From: Candidatus Parvarchaeota archaeon | Lineage (GTDB): Archaea > Nanobdellota > Nanobdellia > Parvarchaeales > Parvarchaeaceae | Direction: 5' to 3' | Length of the DNA: 64,000 nucleotides | Assembly: GCA_023380585.1 (NCBI GenBank) | Contig: JAMCRN010000009.1 | Location: 2,524-66,523, forward strand | In this document: positions 4,415 to 61,422 of the stretch, piece after piece | How the letters are laid out: each line of letters opens with the position of its first letter | Numbering within the stretch: the first letter of the stretch is position 1 | The notes under the pieces: model-generated | Seen by the model: the letters and a program-made list of their open reading frames with translations, nothing else | What the model was told of the DNA's origin: nothing | Database searches by the model: none | Made by a program: the position numbers and the translations under genes

Positions 4415-7400
4415 ATGAAGCGTTTTCTTTTGGGGAAGAGATCCCAATCAGCATTGGAGTATCTAACAACGTACGCCTGGGAGTTTGCTCTTATAATTTT
4501 AGTGGTTGTTGCGCTGTTTTATACAGGCGTGTTCAATACCTCCGGATTCTTCTCATCCGCACCCGTTTTTTCTGGATTCAGCGGTATTTCGATACAGAAT
4601 GTAGTAGCAAATTCCACTGTAGTTGAACTGTCAATGGTCAATGATGAGAACTTTGGAGTAAACATTACAAATATGGCGCTCGATTACAACGGTCAGAATT
4701 TCACTGTGTTCTCATGCACAGAGTATTCACTATATCCTGGTGAGAACACAATCTGCGCTTTTGTGGGATCTTTCCCCCAAAGACGTATATCTACACACTT
4801 GTACATAGACTACAGTACAAACTCAATAAACACTCTATCAGCAGGGAGTATACTATTCTCTCCATCTAACTCCGCTGTCAAGTTCCCATTCATAAAAACA
4901 GAATTAAACTTCACAATAACAAATCTACAGAGCACAGCGACGTCGGCGCCATTCCAGCAAGAGATAACTTTTGATCCGCAGTTCCTGCAGCAGTACGAAT
5001 CCAGCAACCTCGGCAATATACGATTCTATGAAGGAGCACAAGAGTTATACAGCTGGTGCCAAAGCGGATGCTCCTCCTCTTCAGATAATGTAACATTCTG
5101 GGTAAATTTACCGAACGGTGTAGGCGCAGATTCTTCCCTGAATTTAACAATAGTATTCTTACCTTTGGCAAATTACGATGGTGTCTACGCTGGAGAAGCG
5201 CCACAGCTCTCCCCGATATACGCCGAGTATGATAATGGGGCTGATGTGTTCCCGGAATTGTATAATAATTTCAAAGGGACTACATTGAATGGCTTTAGTG
5301 GCGGGACCTATAAAATCGATAATGGTCTTACTATATATGACAATGGCAATTTAGTTTCTACCTCAGCAATACCAGACGGAAACACTGCTGTAACCATTTT
5401 TGGTCTGTTTGACTCTGGCGGCGCAGTATACTCCGGCTCGGGTAGTACATATGCATTGGGTTATGATTTTTACGACGGCAGCGGAGGAACAGGGCTTAGT
5501 TATGCTTTGAACTCAAATTCCGGTGGCAATGTAAATTGCGAAAATTTCGACACAAATAAATCTTGGGGTGCGTCAGCCGTTCCTATAAATACAACAGGTT
5601 TTTATTCTCTTTATTCGATTTATAAATCAGGTAATTTAACGACAGAATTTTATTTCAACAATATTTTCGACTGCGCAGGGAGTTGGCTTTCTGGTAATCC
5701 TTTTTACAACTCATTCTCTTCAACGAGCGACTTTCAATTTTATACGCAGACAACCTCGAATGCCTATGAATATTGGCAGTATATATTTGCGAGAACATTG
5801 CCCCCCAACGGTGTTATGCCGACTGTCTCCGGGCCGCTAGTCACCAGAGTGCCTATAACTTTTACTAACTACCAAGGCACTTCTACGCCGTCTCCTTTCC
5901 AACAAATGGTAACCGTGAACTCCTCACATTTCTCTAAATATGAAGCTAATAATCTAGATAACGTTTTTTTCTTTTATTCTAATGGGACTATCGTGCCTTC
6001 ATGGCTTGAATCAGGCGATGTAGCTACGTTTAATGGCGAGACCACCTCTTATAATTTAGGCGGAACTTCGTCGTATATACAAGGGTCGTCCCCCTACGTT
6101 TTTCCTTTATCTGGCTTTGCTTGGGTCTATGATAAGAACTATGGTACTAGCAATTTTCAGGTAATATTTGAATTTGATGGTAACACTCAAGGGAGTAGTC
6201 AGTTCGAGCTAGCGCTCAGTACAAGCGGGCAATTGAGATTCTGGAACGGGTCAGAGAACTTTTTATCCTCCTTAACCGTACCATTGGATTCATGGAGCCT
6301 AGTTGGGTTTTCTGTGGATTCCAACAATATAAACCTATACGTAAACGGACAAATAGAGTCTTTCCCCACCTCTAACGCCCCTCAGGATCCAGGAGACGGA
6401 TATTGGATAATAGGATGGCAGAACTGCTGCGGTGATAGAGACTTTAACGGAAGCATATCAAACGTCCAGCTATACTCATCAGCACTGTCCAAAACCCAAG
6501 CTGATCAATTATATTTAAGCGGACCATCGGGGTCTCCTCTACAGAATGGAGAATTGGCGGGTTGGTGGCCTCTTCTTGGTAATGCGAATGACATGAGCGG
6601 GAACAACAATAATGGTGTAGTGAACAACGTTTCGTTTACTTTCACCAGTTCGGCAAGCACAAAAACCACATATTGGTTAAAGATAAGTTCTATTCCTGCA
6701 GACTCAACAAAAACAGTGTATATAGGATTCGCGCCTCCCTATATAAATTCCTTCAACAGACTTACTGGAGAAGCGCCACAGCTCTCCCCGATATACGCTG
6801 AATATGATAATGGAGCAAAACTGTTTAATGACTATTGGAATTTTAATGGAACGTCTATGCCCTCTGCTTTTAGCGTAGTGAACCCGAATAGCAAAAGTAC
6901 AATAAGTGTAGACAATGGATTATATATCGCACCATACCCCAATAATTACGCAGGGATAGAGTATAACAGTGTCTTTAACCCCGATTCTGTAGTAGAATAT
7001 TATGAGGTAAGCTCTTATTCAGTACCAAATTGCTGGGCCGTAGGAGAGGCAGTCGGCTCATTTAACAGCTCTGGCGGCTATCTTTATGTTTATGCGTATC
7101 CGCCTGGCAGCGTGTACGGCCAGCTCGGATGGAGTGCCGGTAATATCGTTTTAAGTGATGGGGTAATATATAACCAAATTTTTAGAAATATTACGCGCAG
7201 CAATGTCATAATAGGAGAGGCTTGGCCGTCGGAAAATTTACAGGTGTATTATGCGGATGGACAGGACAGACAGGTGTCGTCAACAAATGAGCTTCTAATA
7301 AAAAGTGGAATAAGCTTCAGCTTTGGGGGGTATTACTGTACAAACGGGTCCTCTATATATACACGTTGGATCAGGGTAAGAGCATATCCCCCAAACGGCA

Positions 7401-7435
7401 TTATGCCAGCCGCCAGCTTTGGAGGAGTGATATAA
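4415..7435 (+). CDS. large (1006 aa) class III signal peptide (type-IV-pilin-like) surface adhesin with internally duplicated ConA/LamG-like modules
   Basis: The N-terminus MKRFLLGKRSQSALEYLTTYAWEFALIILVVVALF is an archaeal prepilin-type signal. GEAPQLSPIYAEYDNGA occurs twice, about 525 aa apart. PPNG(V/I)MP motifs mark the module ends. GWWPLLGNANDMSGNNNNG is a LamG_3-type motif. The protein is rich in Asn/Ser/Thr sequons. Confidence 0.75.
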   Translation: MKRFLLGKRSQSALEYLTTYAWEFALIILVVVALFYTGVFNTSGFFSSAPVFSGFSGISIQNVVANSTVVELSMVNDENFGVNITNMALDYNGQNFTVFSCTEYSLYPGENTICAFVGSFPQRRISTHLYIDYSTNSINTLSAGSILFSPSNSAVKFPFIKTELNFTITNLQSTATSAPFQQEITFDPQFLQQYESSNLGNIRFYEGAQELYSWCQSGCSSSSDNVTFWVNLPNGVGADSSLNLTIVFLPLANYDGVYAGEAPQLSPIYAEYDNGADVFPELYNNFKGTTLNGFSGGTYKIDNGLTIYDNGNLVSTSAIPDGNTAVTIFGLFDSGGAVYSGSGSTYALGYDFYDGSGGTGLSYALNSNSGGNVNCENFDTNKSWGASAVPINTTGFYSLYSIYKSGNLTTEFYFNNIFDCAGSWLSGNPFYNSFSSTSDFQFYTQTTSNAYEYWQYIFARTLPPNGVMPTVSGPLVTRVPITFTNYQGTSTPSPFQQMVTVNSSHFSKYEANNLDNVFFFYSNGTIVPSWLESGDVATFNGETTSYNLGGTSSYIQGSSPYVFPLSGFAWVYDKNYGTSNFQVIFEFDGNTQGSSQFELALSTSGQLRFWNGSENFLSSLTVPLDSWSLVGFSVDSNNINLYVNGQIESFPTSNAPQDPGDGYWIIGWQNCCGDRDFNGSISNVQLYSSALSKTQADQLYLSGPSGSPLQNGELAGWWPLLGNANDMSGNNNNGVVNNVSFTFTSSASTKTTYWLKISSIPADSTKTVYIGFAPPYINSFNRLTGEAPQLSPIYAEYDNGAKLFNDYWNFNGTSMPSAFSVVNPNSKSTISVDNGLYIAPYPNNYAGIEYNSVFNPDSVVEYYEVSSYSVPNCWAVGEAVGSFNSSGGYLYVYAYPPGSVYGQLGWSAGNIVLSDGVIYNQIFRNITRSNVIIGEAWPSENLQVYYADGQDRQVSSTNELLIKSGISFSFGGYYCTNGSSIYTRWIRVRAYPPNGIMPAASFGGVI

Positions 7436-7536
7436 ACAATGAAGAGTACTGGCTTTTATACCCAGAAGGCAGTTATTTAGAATACCTATTTTGCCTGCTT
7501 AACATGCATTTATACTAATTTGACAATACTATTTTA

Positions 7537-7872
7537 ATGGAAAAAGAAAAGACCGAGATTTTACCATTTTATCATATAGGGAGAGTCATAAAGTGTTTGA
7601 CGAAGATAAATTCAGACAGCGCTGATAAAAAATACAAAGCTGTAGTGGAGATGTGGGACAACAATATAATAACGTGCGAAACCGGTGGATTAAAAGTAGA
7701 AGACGGCGATTTCGTCGTTGTATTATTCGATGGTGTGGTACAGGGCAACAATGTTATAATGCATCCCTCCAAGATAACAGATAAGATATCAAAGCAGACT
7801 GGAGAAGAGCTCTGGGAAAATTTCAAAAAGTTTTTCGACAAAGCAAAACCTCCGCACCCCATGACAGGGTAA
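7537..7872 (+). CDS. hypothetical small protein, cotranscribed with the downstream ferritin-like/VIT1 gene
   Basis: A 111-aa ORF whose stop lies 2 nt before the next start. I recognise no motif. Confidence 0.45.
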   Translation: MEKEKTEILPFYHIGRVIKCLTKINSDSADKKYKAVVEMWDNNIITCETGGLKVEDGDFVVVLFDGVVQGNNVIMHPSKITDKISKQTGEELWENFKKFFDKAKPPHPMTG

Positions 7873-7873
7873 T

Positions 7874-9010
7874 ATGAAGGAGTCCAAAGTAATCGAGGAC
7901 TTATTCAGACAGGAAAACAAACACCACCAAGTATACTCCACGCTACTGTTCACAGAGAATAACCGTGCGTTCAAGGCCAGGCTGTCAAAGATCGCAGACA
8001 TAGAGCGCAAGCATTGTGATATATGGGCAGAGATACTGAAAGAATATGGCAAAGAGGTTAAATACAAGAATTATTACCTTCTGCCCTACCTGTTCGTTTT
8101 AATCAGAAGGCTTTTTGGAAGGAGAATTCTGGCTGCCCTCCTTTCTGTATACGAGAAAAACTCCATAGACAAATTCCTTTCAGTGATAAGCTATATCCCC
8201 CGAAAAAGGTTGAAGAAAGTCGTGAACGTGATAAGCGATGAGCTATATAATGAAAGCATATATGGCCCAGAAGTAGACGGTGGCATCTTCTCTCATATCC
8301 GTGAAGTCGTATTCGGCATGAACGACGGCTTAGTGGAAGTATTAGCCGCAGTAGCCGGGATAGTCGGCATATATCATGATAATCTTATAACGGCTCTTGC
8401 AGGTCTGATAATAGGTATCTCAGGCACATTATCTATGGGGGTAGGGGCCTATCTCTCTTCTCGTTCAGCAAAAGACGTTTACACCGCAGAAAACAAGCGT
8501 ATATGGTTAGAATTAGAAGCTGCGAAGAGGCGCGTTCTAGAAAGGTCTAGCCTTTCGTTTGACCATTCAAAAAATATCTTGAGGGATCTCGACTTATTAA
8601 TAAAACGCTTAAGAGCTAAGAGAGACCCTTTCTATACTATCCTCGAAAAAGAGAAGACGAAATATCTCCTAAGAACTCTCGGAGAAAAGAACAGTCTAGA
8701 AGCGAATAAGGCGACAAATCCATTCAAGGACGGGTTATACGTCGGCGTGTTTTATTTGTTAGGGGCAGTAATTCCCCTGGTAAGTTTCTTTGCCGGTGTG
8801 ATACTTCATGATTCGGTCTTTCTGAACTTAATTATATCCGTCATAGCCACCTCACTAGCAATATCACTGGTCGCTACGATAATAGCAGTAGGCACAAGCG
8901 AAAACGTTTTAAAGAGGATATCACAGTCGCTTTTTCTTAGTCTCATGGCAGCCACTGCGACTTTTCTTATAGGCAGCATAGTATCGCATTATATCGGAGC
9001 GTTGTTTTAA
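7874..9010 (+). CDS. membrane-bound ferritin-like protein (N-terminal rubrerythrin/ferritin-like domain fused to VIT1/CCC1 iron transporter domain; MbfA-like)
   Basis: The N-terminal helices carry ExxH (IERKHCDIWAEIL). The C-terminal half (GMNDGLVEVLAAVAGIVG...) is a multi-TM VIT1-type domain. Confidence 0.7.
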   Translation: MKESKVIEDLFRQENKHHQVYSTLLFTENNRAFKARLSKIADIERKHCDIWAEILKEYGKEVKYKNYYLLPYLFVLIRRLFGRRILAALLSVYEKNSIDKFLSVISYIPRKRLKKVVNVISDELYNESIYGPEVDGGIFSHIREVVFGMNDGLVEVLAAVAGIVGIYHDNLITALAGLIIGISGTLSMGVGAYLSSRSAKDVYTAENKRIWLELEAAKRRVLERSSLSFDHSKNILRDLDLLIKRLRAKRDPFYTILEKEKTKYLLRTLGEKNSLEANKATNPFKDGLYVGVFYLLGAVIPLVSFFAGVILHDSVFLNLIISVIATSLAISLVATIIAVGTSENVLKRISQSLFLSLMAATATFLIGSIVSHYIGALF

Positions 9011-48501: not shown

Positions 48502-49380
48502 ATGATATACAAAGAACTAGGAAAAACCAAGGAGAAAGTATCTGCTATAGGTCTTGGCACATGGCAACTTGGCGAGATTACTGAAAGCAAGGTAGACGCC
48601 ATAAGGGCGGGACTTGACAACGGGATAGACTTCATAGACACCGCTGAAATCTACGGTACGGAGGACCTTGTCGGCGAGGCAATAAAAAACAGGAAAAAGC
48701 CTTTTATCGCTACTAAGGTCTGGCCATCTAATTTCAAGTATGATTCTGTTATAAAAGCGTGCGAATCCAGCCTTAAGAGGCTTGGTGTACCTCAAATAGA
48801 CCTTTACCAGCTGCACTGGCCGAATAAATCCATCCCTATAAAAGAAACCATGTCCGCCATGGAGAGATTAGTGGAGGAGGGGAAGATAAGGTACATCGGC
48901 GTAAGCAATTTTAGACCAGAAGAGGTGGATGAGGCCAATAAAGCGCTGAAAAAAAGCGAAATAGTTTCGGACCAAGTAGAATACAGTCTGATAGTAAGAG
49001 GCGCGGAAAAGAAGATTCTCCCATACTGCAAGAAAAAAGGTTTAAGCCTCATAGCATACAGTCCTTTAGGTCATAAGAAGTTAGTATCGAATAAGCATCC
49101 GGAACTTACGGAGACTCTCAAAGAGATAGGAGAAAAATACGGAAGAAGTCCGGTGCAGGTAGCTTTAAATTGGCTCATATCAATGGACAATGTAATAGCT
49201 ATACCAAAGGCTAGCAGCAAAGAACACGTTTTGGAAGATGCGGGAGCAGCAGATTTTGTGATGACAAAGGGAGACATCGCAAAATTAAATGAAGTGTCAG
49301 CAAAGTTCCAGTCAAAATCGCTTTACCAGATGGTCGGTCCTTTAGTTTCTGTCTATTTAAAGTTTAAAAGAATATTTTGA
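48502..49380 (+). CDS. aldo/keto reductase
   Basis: IDTAEIYG and LYQLHWP, the AKR motifs. Confidence 0.85.
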   Translation: MIYKELGKTKEKVSAIGLGTWQLGEITESKVDAIRAGLDNGIDFIDTAEIYGTEDLVGEAIKNRKKPFIATKVWPSNFKYDSVIKACESSLKRLGVPQIDLYQLHWPNKSIPIKETMSAMERLVEEGKIRYIGVSNFRPEEVDEANKALKKSEIVSDQVEYSLIVRGAEKKILPYCKKKGLSLIAYSPLGHKKLVSNKHPELTETLKEIGEKYGRSPVQVALNWLISMDNVIAIPKASSKEHVLEDAGAADFVMTKGDIAKLNEVSAKFQSKSLYQMVGPLVSVYLKFKRIF

Positions 49381-49460
49381 AATTCTGTCATCTTTTTAAT
49401 CAGCTAAAATTTACTTTTATTTTTTATAATTTTATATATCTAACAATAAATCATAAAATC

Positions 49461-50588
49461 ATGAGTAGGTCACAGTCAGCCCTGGAGTACATGATGACCT
49501 ATGGCTGGGCTATCCTGATCATTGTCATCGTAGCCGCAGTCTTATACTCCTTAGGTATCTTCTCCCCATCCTCAAGCATATCAGCAACAGTAACGGGCTT
49601 CTCCAATCTAGGCTCAGTAGCAGCACAATGCACATCCAACGGAGTATTAAGATTAAGTCTTGGAGACTCGACAGGTTACCCTATAAACGTCACCAGTATA
49701 ACAGCAAAAGACTCCTCTACAAGCCAGACATCCACCTTCAAACCAAACTCCACAGTAGATCCTAATCCTATAATAGATGTGGGAGGCAGTTACATCTTCT
49801 CGGTTCCAAATGTATGTCCTCCGGCTGGCTCACATTACTCGATATCGACGACAGTGAACTACACCGAACCCGGACAGCCACTTCCAGGTCCGTATTTTTC
49901 TGTAGGGACTATAACAGGGATTACAATTCCTATAGATTTGCCTGAATATGTAGCTACTTTTAGCAGCAGCTCATCTAGAATTAATACCTCGGCAATTCCG
50001 TTTAGAAACCAGTCTTTTTCGATAACATTTTGGGTTTATCTAAAAACATACAATTCATCATGCCCATACGGTTGTGAATCAAAAGCTTTTACTCTTTCGT
50101 CCTTTCAAGGATGCACTGGTTCTTCTTGTCAGATTTTGGGCTTTGATACAAGAGGTAATAACTTCCATTATTTTGTATGGGACGCAGATCTTTATGAGCC
50201 GTCTACTGCCGGTAAATGGTATTTTATAAGCTGGACATTTAGTAACCCATCTAAGACACAAACAGGTTATATAGACGGAGCTTCGCCGGTTGGAAACGGT
50301 GTATATATAAGTAACCCCACCTACTTGTTCATAGGAGACGGGCCAGTTTTAGGAGGAGGATCTTTAGACGGGTTCATAACAAATTTTCAGATATACAATT
50401 CAACTTTAACACAGTCACAGATAGCTTCCTTGTACCAAGAAGGGCTGGATTATACACCAGTACCTAGCACAGGTTTGGCTCAGTGGTGGCCTCTTAATGG
50501 GACCATAAAGAACTATGCGCAAAATATAATCCCAGCAAACAATGGTGTAGTTTTCACAAGTAATTATCCTTCGACAGGTCTGCCTTAA
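49461..50588 (+). CDS. class III signal peptide (pilin-like) protein with LamG/ConA-like C-terminal module
   Basis: MSRSQSALEYMMTYGWAILIIVIVAAVLY, then a ~150-aa module about 93% nt-identical to the 60250 gene, then a divergent C-terminus ending LAQWWPLNG...NNGVVFTSNYP. The ORF track begins at 49377, but the prepilin-type start is the internal Met at 49461. Confidence 0.7.
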   Translation: MSRSQSALEYMMTYGWAILIIVIVAAVLYSLGIFSPSSSISATVTGFSNLGSVAAQCTSNGVLRLSLGDSTGYPINVTSITAKDSSTSQTSTFKPNSTVDPNPIIDVGGSYIFSVPNVCPPAGSHYSISTTVNYTEPGQPLPGPYFSVGTITGITIPIDLPEYVATFSSSSSRINTSAIPFRNQSFSITFWVYLKTYNSSCPYGCESKAFTLSSFQGCTGSSCQILGFDTRGNNFHYFVWDADLYEPSTAGKWYFISWTFSNPSKTQTGYIDGASPVGNGVYISNPTYLFIGDGPVLGGGSLDGFITNFQIYNSTLTQSQIASLYQEGLDYTPVPSTGLAQWWPLNGTIKNYAQNIIPANNGVVFTSNYPSTGLP

Positions 50589-50665
50589 TCGCGTCATTTT
50601 AGGAATGCAAGAAAAATGGCCAGCCAGGATTTTAATGATTTAAACCCGGAACTCTTTAAGCAAAA

Positions 50666-51229
50666 ATGGCTGAGACACTAGAAGCAATATCAGAAAGAGT
50701 GGTAAAGTGCACTTTATGTGACCTTTCCAACGGCAGAAAAAACGCCGTGCCTGGCGAGGGAATGGCAAATGCAAAACTCATGATAATAGGAGAAGCCCCC
50801 GGAAAGTATGAAGACATACTTGGAAAACCTTTCGTCGGGATGTCTGGAAAGTTTTTAAATAAATATTTAGAATTAGCTGGCATAGACAGATCGAGTACTT
50901 TTATAACAAATTCTGTCAAGTGCAGGCCCCCGAACAATAGGAAGCCCGTTATCGAGGAGATAAGCGCATGCAGGTCATATCTGATATCACAGATATCCCT
51001 GATAAAACCCAAACTCTTGCTGTGTTTAGGCACTTCCGCGTGCAATTCCATGGAAATAAGATACCAGCACCTTTCTGAAGTCAGAGGAAGACCGATGCAT
51101 CTAAAGTTTTATGGATTAGAAATAGAATGTTTTGTTACCTTTCATCCCTCCTTCCCGATGCGCTTTCCAAAAGCCAGGGAAACTTTCCTTGCGGACCTGA
51201 AAGAAGCTAAAAAAATAGTAGGGATGTAA
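50666..51229 (+). CDS. uracil-DNA glycosylase, family 4 (Fe-S, thermostable type)
   Basis: CTLCDL, GEGMANAKLMIIGEAPG and FVGMSGKFL. Confidence 0.85.
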   Translation: MAETLEAISERVVKCTLCDLSNGRKNAVPGEGMANAKLMIIGEAPGKYEDILGKPFVGMSGKFLNKYLELAGIDRSSTFITNSVKCRPPNNRKPVIEEISACRSYLISQISLIKPKLLLCLGTSACNSMEIRYQHLSEVRGRPMHLKFYGLEIECFVTFHPSFPMRFPKARETFLADLKEAKKIVGM

Positions 51230-51358
51230 CTGTGTTGTTGTGCATGCGCCAATCGAATATTTTATTAAAAATTACTATTCACTTTATAATAGTAAAGTAT
51301 TTATAGTAGTTAATCTCTTAAAACTTTAGATGCATCGGTCTTCCGGAGGAAAACAGTT

Positions 51359-52255
51359 ATGCAAAACGCAGGAAACACAAGCAAGACGAAACAATCACCG
51401 AAAGCCGGGAATGCGCCGGCGAAACCAGTGGTACAGACAACTGCTCCGGTAGTAAAACAGTCGTTAGACGATTTATTGTCTCATACAAATTCTCAGCCTT
51501 ATATGCAGCTCGCCACGGCGATGCAGATATATGACAGGCATAAAGATAAACCGAAGTTCAATGTAAACCAGGTCGGCACGGCCCTTTACAACTCTTTAGG
51601 CTCTATAATACAGCAGCATCCTGGCATGGACAGGCAGCCAGAAAACGCACTTCTTTTGAGCAGCATAAAGAACAACATCGATTACGGCACTTTTGACAAC
51701 GCCAAATTCGAAGCAGTAAGGTCGCATGCAATGAAGTTCATAGCGCCTTACTGGGAGGACGTAAAGAACGCCCTTTCAGACGGTGAATATAAGAGGATGG
51801 CGGAAATAGCTTTCGTAAGGAAGAAAGATTTCCCGAATCTGCACAATGAATTGGCTTCGCATGATACAGCAAAGAATGCCGCGTTCTTCGGCGTGATGCT
51901 TAACCAAATGTCGGAAGACGCGAGCGCAAGGAACACTTCCAACATGCTGCAATACTACAATAGTATGGTGGATAACATAGATCTCTCCGTATACAAGAAA
52001 GCGGGATTCACAGATGCACAGGCATCGGACCTGGCTAAATCTGCAAAAGACACTTACACGAAGTTAGTGAACGGCATGACCGAACAGGCGAGAGAAGCCC
52101 ATATGAAAGACATGATGGGTATAGCCTCGTACAAGTTCTCACAGCATGTGAAGAACGTGGACGTAGGCCACATAAAGAGCAAGATAGGCGCAGCGGCTCC
52201 TTACGAGGGACTGCTGCTAGCTCTTCAGTCAAAGAGCCAGCCGAACGAGGCATAA
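51359..52255 (+). CDS. hypothetical protein (disordered Q/S/T/P-rich N-terminus), first of a three-gene operon
   Basis: No recognisable motif. Higher GC than the surrounding DNA. Confidence 0.45.
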   Translation: MQNAGNTSKTKQSPKAGNAPAKPVVQTTAPVVKQSLDDLLSHTNSQPYMQLATAMQIYDRHKDKPKFNVNQVGTALYNSLGSIIQQHPGMDRQPENALLLSSIKNNIDYGTFDNAKFEAVRSHAMKFIAPYWEDVKNALSDGEYKRMAEIAFVRKKDFPNLHNELASHDTAKNAAFFGVMLNQMSEDASARNTSNMLQYYNSMVDNIDLSVYKKAGFTDAQASDLAKSAKDTYTKLVNGMTEQAREAHMKDMMGIASYKFSQHVKNVDVGHIKSKIGAAAPYEGLLLALQSKSQPNEA

Positions 52256-52340
52256 GGCCTCGACGGCTGGATATCTTGTTTTTAGGCCTTGAGACCTCCC
52301 TCTCATGAGGCCTTTCAATATTTAAATCGCAACAGTATCT

Positions 52341-53264
52341 TTGATAAAGATGGAAATCGCAGGGATGTATCCTGAAACGGCAGAAACGGCACCGAGTAGT
52401 GCCTCTAAAGAGACAGGAGAACCGCCGGTCAAGGAGCAGAGTCCTACAGAACAGCAATCCCAACCATCTCAGGCAGCCAATGACACTTCCGTCCAATCTG
52501 CGCCTTCCACTAAGGTAGGCAGGAGCGGTACAGCAAGACGGCTCTCCTCTTTCGCTTCTCAGTTGGAAACAGAGCTTGACAAAGGAGGAATAGGCTCTAT
52601 ATATTCCAATCAGGCCGTAGGCAACGTTTTCGAGGCGGCAGAGATGCCGAAAGCAGAGGTAGTCGGCACAGAAGAGAAACTTAGAGAGATAAAAGAGCTT
52701 AACATACTCGAGCAGGGCGCAATAGAAGCCCCGCCTGAACTTTTTAATCTAGGCCTTCTCGATTTCCAGTTGACCCCATACAAAGACAATAAGGGAAAAC
52801 AGCTAACGAACAAGAACGGGGAAAAGATCTATATAATGAGGGCCAAATGGGGGTACAGGTTTTACAATAACAAACCGAACTACCGCATGAACATATATTC
52901 AGCAGCCAAGAACCTATGGCAGCATTCAGTCAATCTTCGAATGCATTTAGGAAACTTTAAGAGGAACCTGATAAACCCAGAGATATCCGGTGCTGATGTA
53001 TCTGTACGTTTCCTTTCCCCTTACAGGATAGACGGAGGATATAGATATCATTATCCAGGCAGCCCATACGCTGATGACACCCGCTCACGCAGTCTAATTT
53101 CGAGAGTTTTTTCCGCCCCATATGAGCTGCTGAAAGGCGTGATTGTAGGACCTAGAGTAGCAGTTTCTACAGGTCCTATAACAGAGCCTAAGGCCAAGTC
53201 ATTGATAGCGATACTTTCCCAGACAGATGCGAAAGCAAGACTGGAAGCGGAGGAAAACGCATGA
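52341..53264 (+). CDS. hypothetical protein (disordered acidic S/T/Q/P-rich N-terminus)
   Basis: No recognisable motif. Its stop overlaps the next gene's start. Confidence 0.45.
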   Translation: MIKMEIAGMYPETAETAPSSASKETGEPPVKEQSPTEQQSQPSQAANDTSVQSAPSTKVGRSGTARRLSSFASQLETELDKGGIGSIYSNQAVGNVFEAAEMPKAEVVGTEEKLREIKELNILEQGAIEAPPELFNLGLLDFQLTPYKDNKGKQLTNKNGEKIYIMRAKWGYRFYNNKPNYRMNIYSAAKNLWQHSVNLRMHLGNFKRNLINPEISGADVSVRFLSPYRIDGGYRYHYPGSPYADDTRSRSLISRVFSAPYELLKGVIVGPRVAVSTGPITEPKAKSLIAILSQTDAKARLEAEENA

Positions 53265-54007
53265 GTCTTAATAAGTATTTCAGCGATGACAAGGGCGTAC
53301 AGAACCTCGTCAGGCATGGATTCTCACAGATGCCGTTTCATATAGAAAGTGAAGATACGGAAGAAGCTATAGCCGACGGAGTTTGCTGGGCGAGGAAAGG
53401 ACTGGAAAAAATATTAGGAGATACGATAGTAGTCGTAGAAAAATTGGGCAGAGGCAGGAAGACGCATTACAATCTTGTAGGGCCTCTTTCTTTAGAAACA
53501 TATTCCAAAGAAGAGATAAGCGACGATGAAAGGATACAAGATAAATTCAAACCAGGAGTATTATATATAAGCAAATACAATGCTCCGAGAGAAGGAGGTT
53601 CATTTGTAGGGGCTATGAACCCCGAGCATATAATAGGCGCCTACGGGATAGTAAGAGGATACTTAATGAAGAAAGAGGACCATGGGCAGACAACCCGTCC
53701 GATACCTGAGATAGACAGGATATCAACAGGGCCGTATGGGATGGTGCCGAAGAAGGTAACAGACATAATAGCGGACAGTTACGGTTTTCCTAGGCCTAAA
53801 GAGGGAGACATAGTCCCGGTCATATCACATTACGATTTCAACCTAACTTCTTTCAATGAGGAAAACCCCCAGAAGATATTCAGCGCAGTGGTCTACGATG
53901 GTCCGGTATTCCAGGTAACTCCACAGGCAGACGCGGACCGTGTAAAAGTACTGGAAGTCGTCCTGGGTATAGACAAACATCTTTCCTCGTTTCTATTCAA
54001 GAATTAG
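53261..54007 (+). CDS. hypothetical protein
   Basis: No recognisable motif. It is translationally coupled to the previous gene by a 4-nt overlap. Confidence 0.45.
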   Translation: MSLNKYFSDDKGVQNLVRHGFSQMPFHIESEDTEEAIADGVCWARKGLEKILGDTIVVVEKLGRGRKTHYNLVGPLSLETYSKEEISDDERIQDKFKPGVLYISKYNAPREGGSFVGAMNPEHIIGAYGIVRGYLMKKEDHGQTTRPIPEIDRISTGPYGMVPKKVTDIIADSYGFPRPKEGDIVPVISHYDFNLTSFNEENPQKIFSAVVYDGPVFQVTPQADADRVKVLEVVLGIDKHLSSFLFKN

Positions 54008-54033
54008 ATGTTATCTCTGCAAAGTTTAAATAA

Positions 54034-55014
54034 TTGCGGTTACAATCCATAAAAATGAAGGTTTTATCTTTTGATACAGTAATATTCTTAGTGATAGGTA
54101 TAGTCGTAATCCTGCTGGCAAGCACTTACAACATATCACAGGCACTGGCGGCTTTTTCTAACATAAATCTTTTTTACATATTCCTGGCCGCAGTGGCTTG
54201 GGTCCTATTCATATTTTCAAGGTTCATGCCATGGTCGTTTGTACTACGGAGACTGAAGATGAAGGTGCCGTTCATAAAGAGCATGTCCATGATGATACCC
54301 TTCTTTGGGCTCGCTTTCATACCTTCCAGCGTCGGACAGCTCCTACCTCTGCAACATTTAGAAGAGTTCAAGAAGGAATCCCGTTTTTTGTCTCTTGGGA
54401 TACTGCTGTCTCTTAACTCAACATACCTACTTAGCATCATAGCCATGGCCATGATAACCGCTATCTTCGTATCGAATCTTGTTCTGTATATCGTGGCGAT
54501 ATTTGCTATATTATATTTCTTTGTCTCGATGCTAAAGCTAAGCCTGTTCTATAAAGCAATAGACAGATATGTAGTCAAGCCGTTTAAGCTGAAGAAAAGA
54601 AGGTTTATAAAGAACGTCACAAAATACCTTAAACAGCTGGAAAAGAATAAGAGCATATTCTCTCAAAAGGACATAATAACACAGATTCTGCTCTTTCTTC
54701 CGCCCCTGCTCTTGGAAGCGAGCATCCTTTACTTCGCGTTGGTAGCGCTGAACCAGAGCATATCCTTCTTGTCTGCAGTTTTCATCTTCTCCTTCTCTTT
54801 CTCAATCGGAGTATTGCTCTTTTTCTTCCCAGGGGCGATAGGACCGGCCGACGCTTCTATAATAACCCTGCTTATCATTTCCGGAGTGCCAGGGGCAATA
54901 GCCGTCTCAGCAGACATAATACTGCGTTTTTTCAATACTTTTCTGACAATACTGGCCTCATACGGAGTATTCTTGTTTTCAAGGCGTTACATGTGGTCAA
55001 AGAAGACGGTTTGA
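54034..55014 (+). CDS. flippase-like / lysylphosphatidylglycerol-synthase-like (UPF0104) polytopic membrane protein
   Basis: Eight TM helices. It sits at the head of the glycosyltransferase cluster. Confidence 0.45.
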   Translation: MRLQSIKMKVLSFDTVIFLVIGIVVILLASTYNISQALAAFSNINLFYIFLAAVAWVLFIFSRFMPWSFVLRRLKMKVPFIKSMSMMIPFFGLAFIPSSVGQLLPLQHLEEFKKESRFLSLGILLSLNSTYLLSIIAMAMITAIFVSNLVLYIVAIFAILYFFVSMLKLSLFYKAIDRYVVKPFKLKKRRFIKNVTKYLKQLEKNKSIFSQKDIITQILLFLPPLLLEASILYFALVALNQSISFLSAVFIFSFSFSIGVLLFFFPGAIGPADASIITLLIISGVPGAIAVSADIILRFFNTFLTILASYGVFLFSRRYMWSKKTV

Positions 55015-60249: not shown

Positions 60250-61422
60250 ATGAGCCTGACGCATAGATCTCAGTCAGCATTGGAGTACATGATGACCTAT
60301 GGCTGGGCCATCCTGATCATAGTCATCGTAGCCGCAGTCTTATACTCCTTAGGTATCTTCTCCCCATCCTCAAGCATATCAGCAACAGTAACGGGATTCT
60401 CCAATCTAGGTTCAGTAGCAGCACAATGCACAGCCAACGGAGTCTTAAGGATAAACCTAGGAGACTCGACAGGTTACCCTATAAACGTCACCGGTATAAC
60501 AGCAAAAGACTCCTCCACAGGACAGATATCAACATTCAAATCAAATTCCACGGTAGATCCTAATCCTATAATAGATGTGGGAGGCAGTTACATCTTCTCA
60601 GTTCCAAATGTATGTCCCCCTGCCGGCACTCATTACTCCATATCGACGACAGTAAACTACACCGAACCCGGACAGCCACTCCCAGGTCCATACACATCCA
60701 GTGGAACTATCTCTGGAACGGTATCGGCTACAAATCTGCCACCAAGTGTCCCCTACTTTAATGGCGTTAACGCCTATCTTTACTCATCAGGAACGCTTAA
60801 CGGTTTGCCGGTCGGCCGTAGTGCAAGAACGGTTACCGCGTGGTTTTACGCCACTAACCTAACTTCAAGCGGTGGCGGCCGTTCAAATGTTTTTGTGTAT
60901 GGCACAACTAACTGTAATCCAGATAGTATGTTTCATGTGTATATCAATTACGGCAGCGCGCCAAATATAGTTATGAATGCTTGGTGCACTGATACTTCGA
61001 TTAGTGGTGTTGTAGCCGGAAAGTGGTATTTTGTTTCATATGCAATTAATGGTTCCAGCACTCCAAATGGAGATACTTTCCAAACCGGTTATACAGCTTC
61101 GTATGGTGGTAATCTAGTGTTAGCAAAGGACGGTCCATACAATATAAGTACTAGTTCTGTTTCTGGAATAGACATAGCGAATCCTTACGGATCAAACTAT
61201 TATTTTCAAGGTTATATAACAAACATTCAAATATACAACTTTGAACTTTCTCAGGCTCAAATACAAACATTAGTAAATGAGGGTATTTACGGTGCGCCAG
61301 TAACAACTAGCGGTTTAGTTGCGTGGTATCCTCTAAACGGTAGCCTTTCATCGTATCTGGTAAGCAACACAGCATTCTCAAGTGCAAATGCAGTATTCAC
61401 TAGCGATTATCCCACGCCATAG
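60250..61422 (+). CDS. class III signal peptide (pilin-like) protein with LamG/ConA-like C-terminal module
   Basis: MSLTHRSQSALEYMMTYGWAILIIV, the conserved 5' module shared with 49461, and a divergent C-terminus ending GLVAWYPLNG. Confidence 0.7.
   Translation: MSLTHRSQSALEYMMTYGWAILIIVIVAAVLYSLGIFSPSSSISATVTGFSNLGSVAAQCTANGVLRINLGDSTGYPINVTGITAKDSSTGQISTFKSNSTVDPNPIIDVGGSYIFSVPNVCPPAGTHYSISTTVNYTEPGQPLPGPYTSSGTISGTVSATNLPPSVPYFNGVNAYLYSSGTLNGLPVGRSARTVTAWFYATNLTSSGGGRSNVFVYGTTNCNPDSMFHVYINYGSAPNIVMNAWCTDTSISGVVAGKWYFVSYAINGSSTPNGDTFQTGYTASYGGNLVLAKDGPYNISTSSVSGIDIANPYGSNYYFQGYITNIQIYNFELSQAQIQTLVNEGIYGAPVTTSGLVAWYPLNGSLSSYLVSNTAFSSANAVFTSDYPTP

Follow-up and report, generated by a model that had tools for sequence, protein, structure and literature searches.

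It is common knowledge that DPANN archaea have tiny genomes in which a large share of the genes is unannotated, and lineage-restricted orphan clusters are common among them. The three consecutive genes described here (ORF1, ORF2, and ORF3; the trio) are closest in kind to such lineage-specific “conserved hypothetical” DPANN operons, being restricted in distribution, unannotated, and set among housekeeping genes of a compact genome; they differ from generic DPANN hypotheticals in that their families are delimited, their synteny is deep, they are under purifying selection, and two of their products have confident models. We found no mention of them in the Parvarchaeota genomics papers that we searched. 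At the level of single proteins, ORF1 recalls the components of tripartite alpha-pore-forming toxins (PaxB/XaxB, AhlB, and SmhB), which share its elongated all-alpha bundle of about 250–330 residues, as well as long helical bundles of other kinds, among them syntaxin and the ligand-binding domain of McpS; the alpha/beta domain of ORF2 recalls the class II aminoacyl-tRNA-synthetase core (PylRS, PheRS-beta), with its antiparallel sheets flanked by helices; and ORF3 may be comparable to the cradle-loop “GD-box” barrels (Cdc48/VAT N-domain, AbrB-like, and molybdopterin-dinucleotide-binding domains).

The trio lies in the window, by which we mean the whole 64,000-nt stretch that was analysed. A preliminary description had placed there three ORFs of 298, 307, and 248 aa, and all three exist, at exactly the positions it gave; these and the other features discussed below are listed in Table 1.

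Table 1. The trio and the elements around it; positions are those of the window.
Feature	Position	Strand	Remarks
Family-4-type uracil-DNA glycosylase (UDG)	50666..51229	+	Pfam UDG, E = 5.7e-31
26-nt inverted repeat, partner arm	51086..51111		Within the UDG gene
Gap upstream of ORF1	51230..51358		30% GC
BRE/TATA-like box aaagTATTTATAgtag	51295..51310	+	Putative archaeal ORF1 promoter; read from sequence
Perfect 26-nt inverted repeat, 3′ arm	51319..51344	+	Repeat search of the window
GGAGG ribosome-binding site	51346..51350		
ORF1	51359..52255	+	298 aa; ATG start; pI 8.9
ORF on the minus strand	52035..52496	−	153 aa; judged spurious
ORF1-ORF2 spacer elements	52279..52327	+	T5 run, 52279–52283 (terminator-like); ATATTTAAAT, 52318–52327 (TATA-like); sequence read
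ORF2	TTG 52341, ATG 52350, or ATG 52365 to 53264	+	299–307 aa, depending on the start
ATGA overlap	53261..53264		4 nt shared by ORF2 and ORF3
ORF3	53261..54007	+	248 aa; pI 5.7

The three ORFs can be taken as real genes and not as chance ORFs, since ORF3 and its homologue in locus L002 (79% identity) differ with a dN of 0.12 for a dS of 1.62 (dN/dS about 0.075) and since each of the three proteins has distant homologues; close strains, too, show strong purifying selection (omega about 0.08–0.26). The minus-strand ORF was judged spurious because it overlaps conserved plus-strand genes. Defining the transcription units is a less straightforward matter. A three-gene operon with short or overlapping junctions had been proposed, which holds for ORF2 and ORF3, predicted to be translationally coupled through their ATGA overlap, but not for ORF1 and ORF2, which are 85–109 nt apart depending on the ORF2 start chosen (gene callers place it at ATG 52365, for 299 aa, in near-identical contigs), against 3–11 bp in relatives. 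As a TATA-like box follows a T5 run in this spacer, the trio may consist, in the source genome, of ORF1 plus a separate ORF2-ORF3 unit, that is, of two transcription units rather than one operon; the ATATTTAAAT box, located ~27 nt 5′ of ATG 52350, together with the T5 run suggests a separate leaderless ORF2-ORF3 transcript. We found no structured element in the spacer, where the hairpin is not significant (z = −1.15). That ORF1 and ORF2-ORF3 each seem to have their own promoter in the window counts against the complex that we propose below.

The gap upstream of ORF1, previously described as an AT-rich promoter gap, does contain a TATA-like box, but its GC content is ordinary for local intergenic DNA (36.5 ± 7.8% in the window). 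The aaagTATTTATAgtag box, a promoter only by presumption, is unchanged in L001 and L003, two contigs of other strains. Next to it, the 3′ arm of the inverted repeat fills the 5′ leader of ORF1 and stops 1 nt short of the ribosome-binding site; the repeat occurs once in the window, for a chance expectation of 0 matches, a read-through RNA across it gives a fold z of −6.55, and it is missing from L001 and L003, which are 97–98% identical.

We compared the trio to 1.84 billion (1.84e9) representative proteins in an exhaustive phmmer (HMMER) search, which returned 26 matches. Those that can be attributed come from Parvarchaeota/Parvarchaeales (DPANN) MAGs, under the names “Ca. Parvarchaeota archaeon”, “Nanoarchaeota archaeon”, and “Ca. 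Acidifodinimicrobium” (P0008 being named as a Parvarchaeota); scanning metagenomes for the ORF3 motif brought one extra locus only. Near-identical contigs are present in the samples SRR33270693 and ERZ27237490. Judging from these matches, the trio is restricted to Parvarchaeota/Parvarchaeales, which are ultra-small acid-mine archaea. The order UDG-ORF1-ORF2-ORF3 is kept in L005/L008, L007, and L010, with gaps of 40–43 bp between UDG and ORF1, 3–11 bp between ORF1 and ORF2, and −4 to +2 bp between ORF2 and ORF3, even though the trio proteins there are only 22–36% identical to ours; LPG_synthase_TM, GT2, and GH1 genes are close by in these relatives too. UDG is thus a conserved upstream neighbour, directly 5′ of the ORF1 homologue in L005, L007, and L010, and in the relatives it is likely co-operonic with ORF1.

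Outside this slot, the arrangement is looser. In L014, the ORF1 and ORF2 homologues are 7 kb apart on opposite strands, and in L021 and L025, the ORF1 homologue stands alone, which shows that the three genes need not occur together; in L009 (Acidifodinimicrobium-type), only the ORF2-ORF3 pair is present, between SOD and eIF1A. Nine loci show both positions, and in each of them ORF3 is directly 3′ of the ORF2 homologue (the ORF3 copy of L002 has no upstream sequence and is outside this count). ORF2-ORF3 is, hence, the constant core, and ORF1 is sometimes unlinked. In L002, the next gene downstream of the ORF3 homologue is an IS605 OrfB/TnpB gene. We also considered neighbours of the distant loci (177 aa in L018, 306 aa in L017, 448 aa in L014, and 242 aa in L024) as cryptic ORF1 or ORF3 homologues; none of them is one.

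Divergence of the trio is about double that of the enzymes on either side: identity to the relatives is 22–23% for ORF1, 29–36% for ORF2, and 25–27% for ORF3, compared to 57–61% for UDG, 61–65% for GH1, and 60% for GT2 in the same genome pairs. Such fast divergence also fits surface or conflict proteins. The trio could then serve an episymbiotic DPANN cell in host interaction or conflict and be subject to diversifying pressure, all the more as it adjoins a glycosylation cluster and a strain-variable region with pilin-like LamG proteins; however, none of the three proteins has an obvious signal peptide or a predicted transmembrane segment (maximum of the 19-residue Kyte-Doolittle window, KD19, at most 1.16), and single-copy, syntenic genes under the strong purifying selection reported above make this explanation highly unlikely.

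Where the trio comes from was the other point raised at the outset: its GC content, higher than that of its neighbours, and its orphan proteins had been read as signs of a horizontally acquired system, for example of viral, plasmid, or defence proteins. The 2649-bp block is indeed, at 46.4% GC, the richest among windows of its size (mean 41.9%, sd 2.0; runner-up 45.8%), but the excess is modest, 2.2 sd for the block and z values of 1.66, 1.63, and 0.55 for ORF1 (47.4%), ORF2 (47.3%), and ORF3 (44.2%), genes averaging 42.6% (sd 2.9). The tetranucleotide distance of the block is only at the 90th percentile. Among relatives, the GC of the cluster follows each host genome (background about 37 to 47%) and is usually 1–4 points higher; this small excess recurs in seven of the eight relatives, which makes it a property of the genes and not a foreign signature.

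An acquired island, or a module of viral, plasmid, or defence origin with a structural, scaffolding, or anti-phage function, would fit the GC maximum, the orphan proteins, their fast divergence, and the IS605 OrfB/TnpB gene of L002. It is at odds with the synteny kept at 22–36% identity: the UDG-ORF1-ORF2-ORF3 slot is filled, not empty, in L005/L008, L007, and L010. Nor are there mobility hallmarks: the neighbours (UDG, pilin-like LamG protein, aldo-keto reductase, PGM, LPG_synthase_TM, GT4, GT2, and GH1) include no integrase from 45.9 to 63.4 kb, no tRNA adjoins the trio (the closest map to 10.2 and 62.3 kb), and no direct repeats flanking it were found in the window. Viral, plasmid, and defence resources were equally silent, with no PHROGs match, no trio protein matching a PADLOC-DB defence model at E ≤ 1, no relative on IMG/VR viral contigs, nothing in phage genomes (tblastn) or in a plasmid collection, and no significant Foldseek match of the ORF1 and ORF2 models in BFVD (best E = 0.024, probability at most 0.30). 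Syntenic homologues thus exist in distant Parvarchaeota MAGs, and the GC excess is small, but no housekeeping function is known for these homologues. The island reading is already largely refuted, and we consider it extremely improbable.

The absence of recognisable domains, on the other hand, was well seen, since it holds across four profile libraries: Pfam, NCBIfam, PHROGs, and PADLOC gave no match for ORF1, ORF2, or ORF3, no weak Pfam match is consistent across the family members, profile searches of PDB sequences gave no match, and the three families are not related to one another (hhalign). By these searches, the proteins are novel at the family level and form three orphan families without resemblance to any known protein family. 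The JGI label “YeeX (DUF496)” carried by one ORF1-family member was discarded, as Pfam scans do not support it. One has to keep in mind that novelty refers here to the lack of a match among known families and folds, and is not a demonstration of a new kind of system.

The disordered N-terminal tails announced for the first two proteins are borne out by both composition and AlphaFold2 (pLDDT < 50), the two proteins having been modelled from a concatenated ORF2+ORF1 alignment. The ORF1 tail (~34 aa) is basic and of low complexity, with 79% Q/S/T/P/K/A/N in residues 1–34, a net charge of +5, and pLDDT below 50 for residues ~5–30; it precedes an all-alpha domain of ~13 helices (residues ~31–290, pLDDT > 90) in which few residues are invariant (Y48, Y233, and D268) across the 11 representative clusters of the family. 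In ORF2, the S/T/P/Q/E-rich tail (69% Q/S/T/P/K/A/N in residues 1–59, residues 1–63 disordered) is followed by a helix (residues 83–120) and an alpha/beta domain (residues 130–300, pLDDT about 75–84), ahead of which lies a conserved motif region, F..L..Q.G.GGIGD..SN ... VGEE..L.E..RLN.LEE; the C-terminus is acidic and conserved (..EENx). ORF3 carries the motif ADSYGFPRPKxGDxVP, with 13 of its residues invariant in all, and its single-sequence AlphaFold2 run gave no usable model (pLDDT 33).

Foldseek found no significant PDB match for the confident models of ORF1 and ORF2, and the likenesses mentioned above for these two proteins do not amount to identities. PaxB is the best match of ORF1 (E = 0.099, probability 0.13, rmsd 29 Å); however, ORF1 is archaeal, cytoplasmic, and basic and lacks the hydrophobic head or transmembrane-like segment of a toxin B component (KD19 maximum 0.65), and we rejected this identity as a generic helical resemblance. 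The ORF2 model aligns over about 140–155 columns with many PylRS catalytic domains, with E of at least 0.3, probability of at most 0.44, and rmsd of 6–8 Å; we treated this as a non-match, and neither an aminoacyl-tRNA-synthetase Pfam in the members of the ORF2 family nor similarity to the sequences of the solved structures was found. In ORF3, two GD segments (GLEKIL..GDTIVVVE and YGFPRPKEGDIVPVIS) have the form “...L/G..x..GD-x-V-x-V...”; hhalign of the two halves of the protein pairs them over 8 columns with a probability of 0.5%, not significant as a repeat, and one family member has a weak Molydop_binding match (E = 0.16), but neither Pfam nor the PDB supports a cradle-loop barrel.

What might these proteins do? 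Our best explanation, to which we give as a whole a probability of about 0.5, is that the trio is a Parvarchaeota cluster, vertically inherited and not an acquired island, that encodes a soluble hetero-complex with a tentative role in genome maintenance. Three soluble proteins from unrelated orphan families would form a cytoplasmic hetero-complex or scaffold, with ORF2-ORF3 as its constant coupled pair and ORF1 as a helical-bundle partner, adjacent or unlinked depending on the genome. The folded domains (alpha-bundle in ORF1, alpha/beta in ORF2, and putatively beta-rich in ORF3) would be linked by the GGIGD..SN segment of ORF2, which is conserved yet unstructured, and by its acidic EEN C-terminus, roles that we infer from the motifs; the low-complexity tails, basic in ORF1, would touch a partner that is polyanionic or variable. 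As a best guess, we favour a lineage-specific complex of soluble proteins; a DNA-maintenance role is possible, if weakly supported.

The genome-maintenance idea, whose link to DNA is conjectural, stems from the position of the trio behind UDG in several relatives and from the ORF1 and ORF2 homologues found elsewhere near UvrD-PD-(D/E)XK, SprT-like, and PD-(D/E)XK genes. Pushed further, it would make the trio an accessory BER/DNA-damage-repair module or a nucleoid-associated complex working with UDG, in which ORF1 would bind DNA through its basic tail and its bundle, and ORF2-ORF3 would recruit or regulate repair enzymes. Four genomes have a tightly packed UDG-ORF1-ORF2-ORF3 block; the ORF1 homologue of L014 comes next after a UvrD-PDDEXK gene and a weak SprT-like gene (E = 0.006), with HhH-GPD, ExoIII-type nuclease, and dCTP deaminase genes within 5 kb; a PDDEXK_1 nuclease gene is one to two genes 5′ of the ORF2 homologues of L017 and L024; and ORF1 and ORF2 have a pI of about 8.9, ORF1 having in addition its positively charged tail. 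Set against this, no nucleic-acid-binding domain was detected in the trio, and the ORF2 tail is slightly acidic in the source genome. Repair genes are neighbours in about three of six independent contexts, the others having NAD salvage or NAD kinase (L018, L021, and L025) or SOD/eIF1A (L009). The synteny itself may reflect slow rearrangement, GH1, GT2, and LPG-synthase being also conserved nearby, and operons of compact genomes mix unrelated genes (in L005, for example, UDG overlaps a gene that matches tRNA_SAD weakly). The association with DNA repair is post hoc, and we regard a dedicated repair module as unlikely.

Alternatively, the trio could provide abundant structural or cytoskeletal parts (an internal scaffold or a filament) specific to these ultra-small cells, its fast divergence then being due to packing interfaces alone being under constraint. 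ARMAN cells contain unexplained internal tubular structures. ORF1 would suit such a part by its confidently modelled all-alpha bundle, in which hardly any residue is invariant, by its good TATA box and GGAGG ribosome-binding site, and by a raised GC3 (0.57, z = 1.7), and its L021 and L025 homologues sit amid housekeeping genes (S6e, eIF2-gamma, Alba, FtsZ, and SecE); however, this neighbourhood argument is weak, and Foldseek shows no similarity to known cytoskeletal folds, which leaves the structural explanation quite improbable.

Taken as a whole, the interpretation of the preliminary description is partly supported, and the trio is a well-characterised unknown, not the discovery of a mechanism: real genes with a restricted distribution, conserved synteny, ORF2-ORF3 coupling, fast divergence, and no family or fold match. 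That it is an unrecognised protein machine specific to Parvarchaeota, with ORF2-ORF3 as its core and with folds that have no known relatives, seems doubtful to us, whether the machine is taken as a genome-maintenance or nucleoid complex coupled to UDG or as what a lineage-specific intracellular structure is built from. If a complex tied to uracil/DNA repair, or a structural scaffold, were confirmed, the trio would be a lineage-specific invention, and a UDG-coupled complex would replace factors of repair or chromatin that these reduced genomes have lost. In any case, sorting out hypotheticals that are conserved, constrained, and co-inherited is a first step towards how such reduced cells work.

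Three co-directional ORFs lie between the uracil-DNA glycosylase (UDG) gene and the glycosylation cluster, with exactly the coordinates that a preliminary description had assigned to them. The end of ORF2 and the start of ORF3 overlap in a shared ATGA, and an alternative ORF2 start at ATG 52365 (299 aa) is given by gene callers on near-identical public contigs. ORF1, ORF2 and ORF3 are real genes: against a 79%-identical ORF3 homologue on the JGI contig L002, dN is 0.12 and dS 1.62 (omega, that is dN/dS, ~0.075), and the few differences from the strain-level contigs L001 and L003 give an omega of 0.09-0.26. An antisense ORF of 153 aa, rich in Arg, Cys and Leu (52035-52496, − strand), runs from the 3' end of ORF1 into the 5' end of ORF2; most probably it merely shadows the GC-richer coding strand.

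Table. Features of the three-gene locus and its borders (window coordinates).
Feature	Position	Strand	Remarks
Perfect 26-nt inverted repeat	51086-51111 and 51319-51344		Arms inside UDG coding region and in ORF1 leader; spacer 207 nt
Putative promoter box aaagTATTTATAg	51295-51307		ORF1; sequence reading
ORF1	51359-52255	+	298 aa
T5 run	52279		After ORF1; sequence reading
TATA-like box ATATTTAAAT	52318		~27 nt ahead of ORF2 ATG 52350; sequence reading
ORF2	52341-53264	+	307 aa from TTG start
ORF3	53261-54007	+	248 aa
TATA-like box TTTAAATA	54025-54055 region		~27 nt ahead of ATG 54055, LPG-synthase-TM gene; sequence reading

Assigning the three proteins to a family was not possible with any of the resources used. 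No hit came within the thresholds of Pfam, NCBIfam, PHROGs or PADLOC, phmmer and profile searches of all PDB sequences gave no match, and a word-indexed search of 5.8 billion proteins returned near-identical sequences only. With a concatenation of the three proteins as the query, an exhaustive HMMER scan covering 1.84 billion representatives at 50% identity retrieved 26 proteins (11 for ORF1, 11 for ORF2 and 4 for ORF3); leaving near-identical copies aside, they share 22-39% identity. Every family member was scanned in turn, with no recurring weak Pfam match, and hhalign found no relatedness among the three families. Neither a known family nor a known fold was matched, so the three are formally new families.

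The same preliminary description had proposed, from a raised GC content and the lack of recognisable domains, a candidate horizontally acquired or novel system. Of all windows of this size in the 64 kb (mean 41.9%, sd 2.0), the 2649-bp block does have the highest GC (46.4%), but only narrowly: the unrelated windows ranked next stand at 45.1-45.3%, z is 1.66 for ORF1, 1.63 for ORF2 and 0.55 for ORF3, and the tetranucleotide distance is at the 90th percentile only. The gap upstream of ORF1 is indeed AT-rich (30% GC), but normally so for intergenic DNA in the window. In seven of eight loci, the GC of the trio tracks the host genome (background ~37-47%), usually 1-4 points above it, so the excess is a property of the genes themselves. 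Synteny holds across relatives at 22-36% identity, and neither an integrase, an adjacent tRNA nor a flanking direct repeat was found at the trio, all of which argues against an island. As for viral, plasmid-derived or defence proteins, besides the blank PHROGs and PADLOC searches, three scans of IMG/VR and a Foldseek search of BFVD were empty, and tblastn matched the trio to none of 50,697 phage records or 72,556 plasmids. The preliminary description had itself named syntenic homologues of known housekeeping function in every relative, and a GC shift within normal variance, as evidence against its proposal; the findings largely agree with this, except that the homologues have no known function. 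We consider the trio to be vertical, lineage-specific, non-mobile genes, with a probability of roughly 0.8.

In composition, the gene that truly stands out in the window (GC profile 1001-2000) is the one at 774-1484 (− strand), with 52% GC, z = +3.4 and GC3 0.66; next to it, at 2-4 kb, GC drops to 31-34%. Its 236-aa product consists of helix-turn-helix repeats (HTH_23, HTH_Tnp_1, E as low as 7e-22), and the gene may be foreign or belong to a mobile element.

Six loci were obtained when GTDB species representatives were scanned with a motif, in records titled Candidatus Parvarchaeota archaeon, Nanoarchaeota archaeon or Candidatus Acidifodinimicrobium; one ORF1-family protein is assigned to Parvarchaeota in NCBI. 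A deoxyhypusine synthase encoded within the window marks it as archaeal, and the ~60% identity of its flanking enzymes to those of these MAGs makes it a probable member of Parvarchaeales. The homologous loci L005/L008, L007 and L010 keep the order UDG-ORF1-ORF2-ORF3, the successive gaps being 40-43, 3-11 and −4 to +2 bp; as in the window, LPG_synthase_TM, GT2 and GH1 genes are found some kb further downstream. The ORF2-ORF3 pair occurs without an ORF1 homologue in L011, L012 and L013, and on its own in L009 (Acidifodinimicrobium-type), between superoxide dismutase and eIF1A as read from translations. The genes are dispersed in more distant lineages: in L014, the ORF1 homologue is preceded by a UvrD-PD-(D/E)XK helicase-nuclease and a protein with weak SprT similarity, the ORF2 homologue lies on the opposite strand at a distance of 7 kb, and HhH-GPD, ExoIII-type and dCTP deaminase genes are in the neighbourhood; in L021 and L025, the ORF1 homologues come after NAD kinase and sit amid S6e, eIF2-gamma, Alba and FtsZ genes; the gene before the ORF2 homologues is a PD-(D/E)XK nuclease in L017 and L024, whereas in L018 a NAD-salvage cluster precedes it. 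Wherever upstream sequence is visible, ORF3 homologues lie directly 3' of an ORF2 homologue. The trio is a conserved, lineage-restricted set of soluble proteins (no hydrophobic segment was found in any of the three) with a constant, translationally coupled ORF2-ORF3 pair.

Some of these loci call for separate remarks. The genes after ORF2 in L018 and L024 were tested as ORF3 relatives and ruled out. In the L014 region 4458-8918, the UvrD-PD-(D/E)XK protein is a fusion, and the weak SprT-like match (E = 0.006) is a 243-aa protein with HEEAH and Cys-rich motifs. One NAD-salvage/NAD-kinase gene set adjoins both ORF1 and ORF2 homologues (L025, L021, L018), which hints at an older shared neighbourhood. 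Downstream of the 79% ORF3 homologue, the only moderately diverged one, L002 (843-2090) carries an IS605 OrfB/TnpB gene with a Cas12f-like TNB domain in the place that LPG-synthase-TM takes in the window; in the L002 strain, the 3' boundary of the trio has thus undergone an IS insertion or a rearrangement.

Upstream, the arm of the 26-nt repeat in the ORF1 leader stops 1 nt before the GGAGG ribosome-binding site, itself 8 nt ahead of the ATG; ORF1 has a leader. This repeat occurs nowhere else in the window (chance expectation, 0 matches) and is missing from L001 and L003 (97-98% identical), where the leader has ATAAAGTAAAGATAAAAAACAA in place of the arm and 5 positions of the UDG arm are different. 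It looks like a templated (quasi-palindrome-type) mutation; it is possibly a strain-specific regulatory hairpin, the read-through RNA having a predicted fold z of −6.55, and it could be an assembly artefact. The spacing of the TATA-like boxes suggests leaderless transcripts for ORF2-ORF3 and for the LPG-synthase-TM gene. A spacer of just 3-11 bp separates ORF1 from ORF2 in relatives, so the trio is likely co-transcribed there, probably with UDG too.

Against L001 and L003, dS is ~0.34 for UDG (within 50544-51229) and 0.01-0.06 for ORF1-3 and GT4; L001 loses colinear alignment upstream of 50544, and in its first 130 nt it matches, at 77-84%, two of the window's pilin-like LamG genes. These comparisons point to a putative recombination boundary or strain-variable region just upstream of the trio. 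The window has three Laminin_G_3 (concanavalin-like) proteins (4415-7435, 49377-50588 and 60250-61422), probably surface or adhesion proteins; the one at 49377 has an archaeal pilin-like N-terminus, MSRSQSALEYMMTYGWAILIIVIVAAVLYS, by sequence reading, and their genes flank the glycosylation cluster (GT4, three GT2, GH1, LPG_synthase_TM).

Between the window and L005, L007 and L010, identity is 57-61% for UDG, 61-65% for GH1, 60% for one GT2 and 38-42% for the LPG-synthase-TM protein, and falls to 22-23% for ORF1, 29-36% for ORF2 and 25-27% for ORF3, so the trio diverges at roughly double the rate of the enzymes beside it. Despite this, it is under purifying selection at short range, a combination typical of non-enzymatic structural or adaptor proteins.

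The disordered N-terminal tails first noted in ORF1 and ORF2 were borne out, being of low complexity (Q/S/T/P/K/A/N 79% and 69%, respectively) and unstructured in AlphaFold2. Single-sequence prediction of ORF3 gave a pLDDT of 33; its distant homologues were misplaced by MAFFT in the concatenated alignment, and ORF2+ORF1 were modelled without it, as one chain with 20 homologue rows (mean pLDDT 72). In this model, ORF1 residues ~31-290 form an all-alpha domain of ~13 helices (pLDDT >90), while ORF2 has a disordered tail (1-63), a conserved, low-confidence segment bearing a GGIGD..SN motif (70-98), a long helix (83-120) and an alpha/beta domain (130-300, pLDDT ~75-84). Foldseek against PDB gave nothing with E below 0.099, the nearest themes being long helical bundles (PaxB, AhlB, McpS) and class II aaRS cores (PylRS), at a probability of at most 0.44 and an rmsd of at least 6 Å. 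ORF3 has two "...GD-x-V-x-V..." segments, which we take to recall GD-box cradle-loop barrels; hhalign of the ORF3 halves paired them, without significance. A cytoplasmic hetero-complex physically uniting ORF1 to ORF3 is a tentative proposal, to which we give somewhat less than even odds: the docking elements would be ORF2's motif, conserved but unstructured, and the acidic end of the same protein (C-terminal ..EENx in almost all homologues), and ORF1 would be the helical partner with a basic tail.

The neighbourhood is the sole functional lead and is suggestive of genome maintenance, with repair genes in about three of six independent contexts (UDG in the window group, the L014 set, and the PDDEXK nuclease of L017 and L024). 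This lead is weakened because operons of these compact genomes are mixed, and a DNA-maintenance role, read post hoc from these neighbours, is a possibility to which we give low odds. Although the three families are formally new, orphan clusters confined to one lineage are frequent in DPANN genomes.
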